A stretch of DNA of 64,000 bases from an uncultured Alphaproteobacteria bacterium (lineage in GTDB: Bacteria > Bacteroidota > Ignavibacteria > Palsa-1295). A program made the translations under genes and the position numbers. The stretch covers positions 11,659 through 75,658 of the forward strand of contig CAYOJJ010000007.1 of NCBI GenBank assembly GCA_964404255.1, written 5' to 3'. Shown here piece by piece: positions 318 to 5,369 of this stretch. Below the pieces are notes generated by a model. It did no database searches. It was not told where the DNA came from and saw only the letters and a list, made by a program, of their open reading frames with translations. Within the stretch, counting starts at the first letter, position 1, and the number at the start of each line of letters is the position of its first letter.

Positions 318-830
318 ATGATACAACTCACACCTTTTATGGTAACGATCAATGGTACTGGGCCTAATCCTCTCAGTTACCCCGGGTTTCCATCCGGATC
401 TACCCAGGGAGTATTGATCACTAATCAAGACCCTACCCAGCCAATGCCGGCTATTAGTTGTGATATTTTGCAGGCAGTCGCACAACCCTCTGACCCTAAT
501 TTACAAATAGTTCCGTCGCTCTACGTGGTCTCGGGCACTACACAGGACAGCAATTTTGTGCAAGGTGCTGCCATCTTTGATCCAACCTCCGTTGTCCCAT
601 TCGGACAAATTCCGCCGCCTTCCAGTCAGTCCCTGGACCCGAGTAACTATGGATGGTTTTTCTTTGGTACCTACATTCAGGGACATAATACCTATGCGTT
701 CCCCTCATCTTCGGAGCCGGCGATTACCTATGATACGCAGGGGACAAATGGAAAATTTTATACGATCATCTTAGTAAATGACCACACCAATCCTACGATA
801 GTGTTTACCATCGCGGGAACAAGCGCTTAA
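318..830 (+). CDS. Hypothetical small protein A1 (170 aa). No signal peptide or TM segment. Ser/Thr/Pro/Gly/Asn-rich and beta-rich. No recognisable domain
   Basis: ORF preceded by the conserved leader; paralogous to 960-1493 (shared motifs STQGVLITNxDPTQxMP, DPxNYGWF, GKFYTxxxVNDHTNP). Confidence 0.6.
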   Translation: MIQLTPFMVTINGTGPNPLSYPGFPSGSTQGVLITNQDPTQPMPAISCDILQAVAQPSDPNLQIVPSLYVVSGTTQDSNFVQGAAIFDPTSVVPFGQIPPPSSQSLDPSNYGWFFFGTYIQGHNTYAFPSSSEPAITYDTQGTNGKFYTIILVNDHTNPTIVFTIAGTSA

Positions 831-926
831 CGGTACTGCTGTCAATAGTACTTCAGTTATAGTGAAGGACTTATTACGATAGTACTTTTCAAACCATCCC
901 GGGCATCGCTGTTGTAGATGCTCGAT

Positions 927-959
927 ATCACCTATTCATTTTTAGAACAAAGTATCACA
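927..959 (+). promoter_or_regulatory. Partial copy of the conserved leader upstream of A2
   Basis: gatatcacctattcatttttagaacaaagtatcacaATG aligns with the leaders at 285-317 and 4806-4841. Confidence 0.35.
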
Positions 960-1493
960 ATGGTAACACTAACTCCGATCACTGTTACAGCCGGCACCGG
1001 GCCGGGCTGTGTTAATGGAATGGGGCTGCCAAGTGGCGCATCGACCCAGGGCGTCCTGATCACTAATTCTGATCCTACGCAAGCAATGCCTACCTTGTCC
1101 AGCTTTATTATGATGAATGCTAAGGCACCCGCAAATCCTAAGGCGGCGGTTGGCCCGGCTTTATTTTTTGTATCGGGCTATCTCAATAACGATAACCAAT
1201 TCGTACAAGGGGGCGCTTCATATATCCCAGCGTTCAATGGAATACTCAATTCTATCCCACCTCCATCGAGTTTACCAAGCCCAACGGGCCCAAATGATCC
1301 GGCCAATTATGGCTGGTTCATTTATGGAGCGTCTGTGCAGAGAGATGTTACAACGGCATTCCCTACAACCTCAGTGCCTATGATAACGCACGATATGCAT
1401 GGACCAATGATGGGAAAATTTTATACTCTTACGTTTGTAAATGATCACACTAATCCTTCGGTTGTGGCGACAGTTGTTGGTATTTGCCCTTAG
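960..1493 (+). CDS. Hypothetical small protein A2 (177 aa from the internal ATG at 960; the ORF is open from 918). Paralog of A1
   Basis: Shares motifs with A1. Stop at 1491-1493, 2 bp from the stop of the convergent STAND gene. Confidence 0.55.
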   Translation: MVTLTPITVTAGTGPGCVNGMGLPSGASTQGVLITNSDPTQAMPTLSSFIMMNAKAPANPKAAVGPALFFVSGYLNNDNQFVQGGASYIPAFNGILNSIPPPSSLPSPTGPNDPANYGWFIYGASVQRDVTTAFPTTSVPMITHDMHGPMMGKFYTLTFVNDHTNPSVVATVVGICP

Positions 1494-1495
1494 TA

Positions 1496-4336: not shown

Positions 4337-4492
4337 TAGCAGATCTGTGGACTATAAAACCATGAATAGCAAGCTCTAATTGCAAGAATGAGGAGTAGGG
4401 CAGTCTGCCTAAGTGAAAGGTTGGTGAAGAGGTTAGAGGATTTCTCTCTCTGCGGTTCGCAGTAACGGGTTTAATCAGCATCTTTTTATCAA

Positions 4493-4586
4493 TGTCATTG
4501 CGAGCGAAGCGCGGCAATCCAAGACGGTGAGTATATTGCCGAAAGGTCTCGGATTGCCACGTCGTCTTCGACTCCTCGCAATGACA
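4493..4586. repeat. Imperfect nested palindromic element (outer stem tgtcattgcgag/ctcgcaatgaca; inner ggcaatcc/ggattgcc) in the upstream region of STAND1
   Basis: Inverted repeats read directly; a homologous copy is at 8411-8511, upstream of STAND2. Confidence 0.6.
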
Positions 4587-4765
4587 ATCTGGAATAAGCC
4601 TGTCACTGCGAACTCCGCCACGGCGGATGAGCAATCCCTTTAATGTCCTAACAGACCGGCTTATGCCTCTGCCGAGTAAGATATAATGCCCCATATTTAA
4701 CCCTCAACCGGTCTTGCATTTAAGGCTCGTTTGTTGTATGTTTGTATAGCAACTGAGCAGCTTAA

Positions 4766-4841
4766 TTTTTTTACCATCTGGTGTATCATTACCAAGATAC
4801 ACGGGATTCATCTATTCATTCACTCTAAATCAATACCCACA
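4766..4841 (+). promoter_or_regulatory. Conserved 5' leader/promoter region of small ORF A3; -7-like TAatTTTT; hairpin GTGTATC...GATACAC at 4781-4802
   Basis: Aligns with 245-317; the hairpin keeps its pairing with a different loop. Confidence 0.5.
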
Positions 4842-5369
4842 ATGGCTAATACTCTTACTATCTCGAAGTGGATCGATACGGGCAGCAATGTGCCCGCATT
4901 ATTAATTAGTGTAAGCGGTGACGCCGCCACTTTAAATATTTTAGACTGGAATGGCAGTGCTCCGAAAGGGGGCAATATCCAGCTCTATGCAAGACAAGTA
5001 GTAAATGGGGTGGGAGGCCATTATCAGACTTCCGGCTGGGATGGTGTAGACGAAATTGTCAATCAAGGTGGTTGGAAAGTGGGGCCCAAAACTAAGATTT
5101 GGCCAGTGCCTGATCCGAATACAGGCTTTAATATGACTTCCTTTCCCCTCAATAATAGCACTGCCTGGTCGATCCTACCACAATATGGGGCTGTAGGTAG
5201 TTCGACTCCCAACAGCACAAGCATGGAGGTTAGCCCGATAACATCTGTTCCTTATGGCGGCATGTTACCTACTACAGTTCAGGTTACGTTAAGTAATGTT
5301 GTCATCGATAACAACGGCGGAACAGGTAATGTAATTGTCACAGTGGAAATTGATGCGGAGGTGCCGTAA
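4842..5369 (+). CDS. Hypothetical small protein A3 (175 aa from the ATG at 4842; the ORF is open from 4731). No domain recognised
   Basis: Start chosen at the ATG preceded by the conserved leader; converges on STAND2 (stop 15 bp from the STAND2 stop). Confidence 0.55.
   Translation: MANTLTISKWIDTGSNVPALLISVSGDAATLNILDWNGSAPKGGNIQLYARQVVNGVGGHYQTSGWDGVDEIVNQGGWKVGPKTKIWPVPDPNTGFNMTSFPLNNSTAWSILPQYGAVGSSTPNSTSMEVSPITSVPYGGMLPTTVQVTLSNVVIDNNGGTGNVIVTVEIDAEVP

Follow-up and report, generated by a model that had tools for sequence, protein, structure and literature searches.

The small proteins described here belong to two unrelated families, each of which goes with its own type of tetratricopeptide repeat (TPR) sensor, and are encoded inside duplicated two-gene modules resembling nucleotide-binding leucine-rich repeat (NLR) receptors. 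The modules lie in a 64,000-nt stretch of DNA (the window) from an uncultured bacterium deposited as Alphaproteobacteria and placed by GTDB in the Ignavibacteria (Bacteroidota; Palsa-1295). The window covers positions 11,659–75,658 of the forward strand of contig CAYOJJ010000007.1 (assembly GCA_964404255.1), and coordinates given without a locus name are counted from its first nucleotide. In each module, a gene for a signal transduction ATPase with numerous domains (STAND) faces small genes on the opposite strand: the tandem genes A1 and A2 face STAND1, and A3 faces STAND2. The STAND genes belong to the known DUF4062/TeTIR–NACHT–TPR kind, and the new part is the partner-carrying architecture; our observations suggest a two-gene sensor module with a variable partner that is absent from the searchable literature. 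The two modules comprise the following features.

245–317, plus strand: A1 leader, non-coding, with a hairpin or palindrome at about 254–286 and TTCAC at −21 from the ATG.
318–830, plus strand: A1, an open reading frame (ORF) of 170 aa, charge-poor and β-strand-rich, the first partner gene of STAND1.
885–959, plus strand: A2 leader, a diverged copy found by alignment of the three upstream regions, with a hairpin by RNA folding.
960–1493, plus strand: A2, 177 aa, tandem paralog of A1, inside a longer ORF starting at 918.
1496–2720, minus strand: variable 3' part of STAND1, the TPR sensor (residues ~540–946), with TPR_12 and TPR_10 Pfam matches.
2721–4336, minus strand: conserved 5' part of STAND1, with DUF4062 (TIR-like), a NACHT P-loop NTPase and a helical/winged-helix region.
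4767–4841, plus strand: A3 leader, non-coding, homologous to the A1 leader, with a hairpin at 4776–4807 and TTCAC at −23.
4842–5369, plus strand: A3, 175 aa, Gly/Asn-rich and β-strand-rich, the partner gene of STAND2, inside an ORF starting at 4731.
5384–6656, minus strand: variable 3' part of STAND2, coding for the kind of TPR sensor that accompanies A3-like partners.
6657–8272, minus strand: conserved 5' part of STAND2, DUF4062–NACHT–helical, with the start at the conserved MHTTEF; the ORF could reach 8359.

The two STAND genes are alike in their 5' parts and unlike in their 3' parts. Over residues 1 to ~540, STAND1 (1496–4336, 946 aa, on the strand opposite to A1 and A2) and STAND2 share 93% protein and 86% DNA identity, with nonsynonymous and synonymous divergences (dN, dS) of 0.03 and 0.76. 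Identity per 30-residue window stays at 0.83–1.0 up to about residue 540 and is 0.2–0.3 from about 570 onwards, and the TPR parts are about 23% identical. At the DNA level, homology between the modules is confined to the 5' 1.6 kb of the STAND genes (2721–4395 vs. 6657–8332), the leaders (245–320 vs. 4767–4844) and an inverted-repeat element described below. In both modules the partner and STAND genes meet tail-to-tail, the stop codons of A2 and STAND1 being 2 bp apart and the end of A3 lying 14 bp from the stop codon of STAND2. Since the genes are convergent, the unlike DNA forms one contiguous block made of the small gene or genes and the TPR-coding 3' end, flanked by the conserved leader on one side and by the conserved DUF4062–NACHT coding part on the other. 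That these two elements form one variable block and change together had been missed by the first-pass annotation, which was made from the letters of the window and drew attention to the small genes.

By their domain matches, both large genes classify as STAND/NLR-like NTPases with a TIR-like effector domain and C-terminal repeats. DUF4062 was matched in Pfam at E = 4e-13 and 2e-13 in the two proteins and TPR_12 at up to E = 1e-36, the NACHT match being weak (E = 3.5e-4, below the cut-off). The TIR-like domain of TEP1 (PDB 11gz_A) was matched at E = 4e-23, with the SITEME motif aligned and kept. Residues E121, G249, G251, K252 and S253 are invariant in 40 STAND homologs, and the Walker A motif reads GLGKSS. 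The database versions of STAND1 and STAND2 (929 and 945 aa) begin 17 residues past the conserved MHTTEFRVFLSSTFRDL (4286–4336 and 8222–8272) and are thus devoid of the first strand of the TIR-like domain, which is kept in all homologs.

A1 and A2 are indeed tandem paralogs, as had been proposed by eye. They are 46% identical over 175 columns (E = 4e-40), and all of the motifs quoted at that time are present (STQGVLITN, DPTQxMP, FVQG, IPPPSS, NYGWF and GKFYT..VNDHTNP). Identity at codon positions 1, 2 and 3 is 0.62, 0.70 and 0.38, and the proportions of differing nonsynonymous and synonymous sites are pN 0.33 and pS 0.76. Hence both are coding sequences under purifying selection and real genes, not pseudogene remnants. 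The other properties first ascribed to the three small proteins, i.e., the lack of a recognisable family, of a signal peptide and of a transmembrane helix, and a β-rich composition, likewise hold. No signal-peptide-like N-terminus was seen in A1, A2 or A3, and the maximum hydropathy over 19-residue windows is 0.8–1.2, so that no stretch is transmembrane-like. The AlphaFold2 models are almost entirely strand, at low confidence: the predicted local distance difference test (pLDDT) score was 42 for A1, modelled from a two-sequence alignment, and 39 for A3, modelled from a single sequence. A Foldseek comparison of these models with the PDB returned nothing below E = 0.001 and TM-scores of at most 0.33; it was discarded as meaningless, as the models are too poor to place a fold.

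On sequence evidence, A1 and A2 constitute a family unique to this genome. Neither matched any family in Pfam, PADLOC, PHROGs or NCBIfam, and PDB profile searches with A1/A2 and with A3 gave chance-level matches only. Each of the three proteins is a singleton among ~15 billion predicted proteins, and in a word-indexed search of 5.8 billion protein clusters the A1 and A3 queries recovered only themselves. When 1.84 billion representatives were searched exhaustively by HMMER with the A1+A2 profile, the only matches were A1, A2 (as P0123) and, weakly, a repeat protein, P0124. The latter, the sole match of this profile outside this genome, is a 1587-aa protein secreted by the type IX system (T9SS); it carries about ten β-sandwich-like repeats of ~113 aa, whose motif G(M)PTG.SLGGVVVTNQPATTG is similar to GFPSGSTQGVLITNQDPTQ of A1. 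Alignment of A1 residues 20–102 with a P0124 repeat by hhalign gave a probability of 40%, which hints that A1 and A2 may contain a β-sandwich of the P0124 repeat type. Scans for sequence patterns in JGI metagenome contigs and in IMG/VR viral contigs revealed no relatives of A1/A2 or of the A3 family, and a phage origin or phage mimicry is therefore without support.

The proposal that A1, A2 and A3 form one protein family had to be abandoned. A3 has no detectable homology to A1/A2 (BLASTP E = 3.3; hhalign profile–profile probability 0.2%), and the three share composition and a DNA leader only. As these comparisons indicate, A3 belongs to a separate family. Its relatives are the small convergent genes of five related loci (L006, L016, L020, L078, and L079), at 31–37% identity and BLAST E-values of 1e-9 to 1e-18, with the small genes of L007 as more distant relatives. 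The family can be aligned over its full length and has the motifs GGN(V/I)QLY, (S/C)GWDG, WS(I/V)(I/L)PQ(T/Y)G and NGGTGN(I/V)(I/V)VT. The genomes carrying these relatives are other Bacteroidota and Kapaibacteria, and each relative adjoins a homologous STAND gene. A3 had no match at the family threshold in Pfam, PHROGs, NCBIfam, PADLOC or PDB sequences. A match to the viral jelly-roll family STIV_turret_3rd (E = 0.0088; 16.8 bits vs. a cut-off of 27) was rejected because no other member of the A3 family shares it. The partner gene of L020 (8895–9419 of that locus, minus strand) is a mosaic, with the 5' two-thirds 86% identical to the L079 partner and an L016-like 3' end; its reading frame is broken once, by a stop at codon 127, and the adjoining STAND is 97–98% identical to that of L016.

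Comparison with related loci demonstrates that the partner family tracks the TPR type and not the N-terminal lineage, at the family level though not strictly. The STAND2 TPR region is 41–44% identical (287–316 bits) to those of L006, L016 and L020, all three of which have A3-relative partners. The range is 34–44% (215–316 bits) if L078, L079, P0009 and P0028 are included, and at most 29% (at most 144 bits) for all other compared loci. In contrast, the N-terminal part of STAND2 is 52–53% identical to those of L006, L016 and L020, which is no closer than to other loci. The STAND2-type TPR was found among the STAND protein matches in P0009, P0028, P0038 and P0040, the last with a TPR score equal to that of L020. 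The loci of the first three, chosen by their TPR alone, were examined for the partner that the TPR type predicts. A convergent small gene without a Pfam family is present in 3/3, and A3 relatives are encoded in both loci whose DNA could be read. In parallel with the lack of A1/A2 relatives, the STAND1 TPR is an orphan, having no relative above 27% identity among the best 120 of 767 STAND homologs. Overall, 17 of the 21 locus pairs with similar partners also have similar TPRs, and the remaining four are all pairs with the distant L007 genes.

STAND homologs are frequent in Bacteroidota, Kapaibacteria, Ignavibacteria and Chlorobiota, the nearest one outside this genome being 45% identical. The closest STAND relatives, together with T9SS sorting domains, point to a member of the Bacteroidota as the source of the window. 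A convergent gene of 100–215 aa without a Pfam domain lies directly downstream of approximately 24 of the 27 assessable related STAND genes from several phyla. Thus, the pairing of small and STAND genes, initially described as obligate, is a tight linkage with exceptions (L005, L021, and L010). None of 18 partner proteins from other loci has a Pfam family; taken together, the partners fall into a few sequence families plus several proteins without a detectable relative. Their composition is characteristic, with K+R of 0.6–8% (at most 5% in most) and roughly one-half G/N/S/T/P, and at the C-terminus of most of them a hydrophobic-alternating strand leads into a short tail that is Gly-rich or basic. 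Two tandem STAND-plus-partner modules are found in L003, as in the window, and two tandem partner paralogs, as A1 and A2, in L007.

Some of these loci have further peculiarities. Each of the L003 modules (3750–5181 and 8785–10310 of that locus) also has a gene for a secreted cysteine peptidase of the Peptidase_C39_2/C70 (AvrRpt2-like) type and one for a secreted protein of ~240 aa. Relatives of the latter directly adjoin the STAND gene in the partner-less L005 (8904–9623) and L021 (8903–9613). In L010, where the STAND is intact, the partner position (8766–9410) is occupied by a short-repeat array translating to IPAAAGMTFMFVHGREA-like peptides. Apparent small ORFs at more distant tandem STAND arrays (L035, L048, L052, L056, L063, L074, and L076) were dropped, since they mirror the conserved SSTFRDL…ER region and were judged to be antisense shadows of the 5' end of the next STAND gene.

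The leaders of A1 and A3 (245–317 and 4767–4841) are ~75 nt long, differ by small indels and directly precede the ATG. A3 had earlier been credited with the same leader as A1 and A2. This is correct for the DNA, which is ~80% identical, but the leader is non-coding and not a shared peptide, as indels of 1–2 nt between the two copies rule out a coding reading. The identity of 80% exceeds the 52% at synonymous sites of the duplicated STAND part (pS 0.48), and the leader is thus probably constrained. A more diverged copy precedes A2. All three have a hairpin of the form ATCTnGTGnATC-N8-GATACACGGGAT at the same position (254–286, 900–925, and 4776–4807), retained in the A2 leader via a compensatory change (GCATC/GATGC). 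The RNA folding z-scores of the leaders range from −1.8 to −2.7 (A1, −2.4; A2, −1.8). The element may be a hairpin at the RNA level or an operator palindrome.

The A1 and A3 leaders also contain TTCAC, at 297–301 and 4819–4823 in the window; the motif often reads TTTTTCAC(T). In 10/25 partner genes it stands 21–24 nt before the ATG, a placement seen in 1.6% of control ORFs (Fisher p about 1e-10; some of the sequences are not independent). At 21–26 nt it is seen in 12/25 partner genes, from different genomes and with unrelated coding sequences; its carriers are A1, A3, L001, L003 (both), L007, L016, L018, L020, L062, L078 and L079. In some loci of Ignavibacteriota and Kapaibacteria, i.e., L007 (both genes), L017, L023 and L011, a GC-rich hairpin, GGCGGACGTTCCGCC, ~30–60 nt upstream of the partner ATG replaces the TTCAC-type leader. 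At the other end of the partner genes, no terminator-like site was found between the convergent stop codons, and as these are 2–14 bp apart, transcripts of partner and STAND genes probably collide.

Three further features surround the modules.

3–233, plus strand: 3' end of a Macro-domain gene, clipped by the window edge, found by tblastn with the L001 Macro protein.
4493–4586: nested inverted-repeat element upstream of STAND1, resembling miniature inverted-repeat transposable elements (MITE) or repetitive extragenic palindromes (REP).
8411–8511: second copy of this element, upstream of STAND2.

The tblastn match (54% identity over 59 aa, at 48–224) places the end of the Macro gene directly upstream of A1 on the same strand. 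The order Macro gene, small gene, convergent STAND gene also occurs in L001 and in the P0009 locus, and Macro genes lie near the module in L001 (9445–9978), L003 (10320–10874), L018 (8076–8564) and L022. ADP-ribose, which DUF4062 NADases are reported to produce, is bound or processed by Macro domains. This neighbourhood could be a functional link or mere synteny of related genomes. The inverted-repeat element, TGTCATTGCGAG...GGCAATCC...GGATTGCC...CTCGCAATGACA, lies ~150–250 bp upstream of each STAND start codon, and within the window it is found in these two places only. An Rfam search of positions 1–9000 gave nothing real. The internal DNA repeats of the module are limited to the STAND 5' parts, the leaders and the inverted-repeat element, and the module has no other ORF of at least 150 aa except one overlapping this intergenic repeat. 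Diversity-generating retroelements (DGRs) were also considered; there is neither a reverse transcriptase nor a template/variable repeat pair in the module, and thus nothing points to diversification of this type.

We consider it somewhat better than an even chance that A1/A2 and A3 are cognate to the TPR sensor and diversify together with it, as partners in an NLR-like module of two genes. In such a module, the small partner would dock onto the TPR solenoid, serving as an exchangeable co-sensor or bait that gives specificity. A phage component binding or altering the partner–TPR complex would cause the NACHT module to oligomerise, bringing the TIR-like domains together; NAD+ hydrolysis would follow, and the infected cell would be stopped. 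The two modules of this genome would then be orthogonal partner/TPR pairs. We infer a role in anti-phage defence from the domain architecture and the DUF4062 literature; partner–TPR binding and NADase activity of the STAND proteins are likewise predicted. Recent reports describe DUF4062 domains as NADases whose activation depends on their assembling on a phage protein (bioRxiv 10.64898/2026.05.01.722283; also 10.64898/2026.06.25.731849, 10.64898/2026.09.21.753143), and the TPR sensor of Avs7 is reported to envelop an entire protein, the major capsid protein (PMC13581612).

Several observations weigh against this cognate-partner model. Intact STAND genes without a small partner exist in L005, L021 and L010. 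The coupling has exceptions, one being L020, whose TPR resembles that of L016 (98% identity) and whose partner resembles that of L079 (86% identity). In a single TPR group (L010, L011, L013, L015, and L026), the partners are of two types that cannot be aligned, and one type has a lipoprotein signal peptide. As the partner gene adjoins the TPR-coding end, their joint change could arise by linkage alone. The remaining visible neighbours in the window are housekeeping genes and form no defence island, the PADLOC models gave no significant match to the STANDs, and the A1 and A3 structure models have the low confidence noted above. Moreover, three isolated prokaryotic TeTIR domains had no NADase activity in vitro (bioRxiv 10.64898/2026.09.21.753143).

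The small protein might instead be an inhibitor, a safety catch or antitoxin-like subunit that sits in the TPR and keeps the NADase-STAND off until infection removes or outcompetes it; its diversification would prevent cross-talk between paralogous modules and help to escape phage mimics. A variable C-terminal domain with an adjacent cognate small gene is the layout of polymorphic toxin/immunity systems, the variable block has sharp identity breakpoints at both edges, and two orthogonal pairs reside within one genome. The separate conserved leader and the convergent layout would permit independent expression, as in many restriction-modification pairs. That partner and STAND genes are not co-transcribed counts against an inhibitor. 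We regard this alternative as unlikely, given the intact STANDs that lack a partner (L005, L021, and L010) or have one with an in-frame stop (L020): an active NADase without an essential inhibitor would be lethal, though this argument is based on a few metagenome-assembled genomes. Tolerated loss of the partner agrees with a self-encoded trigger, kept silent by the leader and convergent transcription and made upon infection or stress to activate the TPR sensor. The leader, with its hairpin or palindrome and TTCAC, is conserved whatever coding sequence comes after it, and the close stop codons, with the probable collision of transcripts, fit such silencing. However, no regulator gene was seen in the module, and a self ligand would have no obvious reason to diversify to this extreme; we deem the trigger improbable.

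The small genes could also be fast-evolving ORFs without homologs (ORFans) in the STAND 3' flank, replaced together with the TPR end by linkage and irrelevant to STAND function. The absence of a domain or a confident structure, the confinement of A1/A2 to this genome, the loci that lack the small gene, and the recombination that parted partner from TPR in L020 are all in line with this. Nonetheless, it has little probability in our opinion, as position, orientation, size and composition are conserved in ~24/27 assessable loci from several phyla, purifying selection acts on the genes, the motif in the leader has been conserved, and the TPR-based prediction of the partner family held in every locus that could be tested. 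Finally, a polymorphic small protein beside a hypervariable NLR repeat domain recalls fungal NLR incompatibility (het-d/het-e; PMC12222747), in which case the small protein would be a label and the NLR-like protein would kill on encountering a foreign one. The lack of a defence island and the expansion of STAND paralogs in these genomes fit such allorecognition. At the same time, these bacteria are not known to exchange cytoplasmic proteins by any route and A1–A3 have no export signal, which makes it a very remote prospect.

Several known systems resemble the cognate-partner module in part. The antiviral Avs/bNACHT STANDs are built in the same order, from an N-terminal effector through a P-loop STAND NTPase (Walker A GLGKSS) to a C-terminal sensor of the TPR type. 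In the literature searched they are described as single-gene sensors that bind phage proteins directly, whereas the window modules have a conserved, self-encoded small gene placed tail-to-tail and changing with the TPR type. The effector domain is homologous to those of the DUF4062/TeTIR NADases, including bacterial Swarozyc and Evangelion and eukaryotic TEP1, NWD1/2 and NPHP3. NPHP3 has the same DUF4062–NACHT–TPR order as the window STANDs, and several homologs are called "nephrocystin-3" by JGI. Swarozyc and Evangelion are single genes without the NACHT–TPR part (bioRxiv 10.64898/2026.05.01.722283, 10.64898/2026.06.25.731849). A small conserved partner is not mentioned in the searchable literature on DUF4062/TeTIR proteins or Avs/bNACHT sensors.

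Polymorphic toxin/immunity cassettes, e.g., CdiA-CT/CdiI of contact-dependent inhibition (CDI) and Rhs, also have a conserved N-terminal body, a variable C-terminal domain with sharp boundaries and, next to it, a small gene that varies in step with that domain, and may form tandem modules in one locus. In the window, however, the variable domain is a TPR sensor, the small gene is convergent and the proteins are cytoplasmic. A toxin–antitoxin or toxin–immunity pair was rejected on these grounds, as the genes do not form a co-directional operon and the variable region is TPR with no toxin domain. An NLR-like gene beside a small, charge-poor, G/N/S/T-rich partner is also seen in the amyloid signalling pairs, i.e., fungal NWD2/HET-S and bacterial BASS. 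In contrast to these, the window STANDs begin directly with the TIR-like domain, and the amyloid reading was rejected because no motif is common to the partner and the STAND N-terminus (best local matches of A1–A3 to STAND1/2 all at E > 8). Plant guard/decoy pairs (RPM1/RPS2 with RIN4, ZAR1 with RKS1) offer a functional analogy only, with no homology. In these NLRs, a separate small protein held by the sensor region of the receptor sets what is sensed.

STAND/NLR-like sensors are central to bacterial immunity, and DUF4062 has only lately been shown to be a TIR-like NADase. A broader, tentative possibility, which we find rather doubtful at present, is that the DUF4062–NACHT–TPR clade consists of two-component receptors, with a hypervariable, self-encoded, β-rich bait or specificity subunit held by the TPR, and with ligand-plus-sensor cassettes swapped as units between the leader and the NACHT flank. 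If true, prokaryotes would have their own counterpart of guard/decoy or paired-receptor immunity, in which cassette exchange yields new specificities. A conserved, co-varying, self-encoded partner would add a layer to these sensors, be it an adaptor, a bait or a safety catch, and would provide a means of testing how the specificity of sensors is set and exchanged. The present analysis also points to unannotated small proteins of one class, which are recognised by their place beside these STAND genes rather than by sequence.

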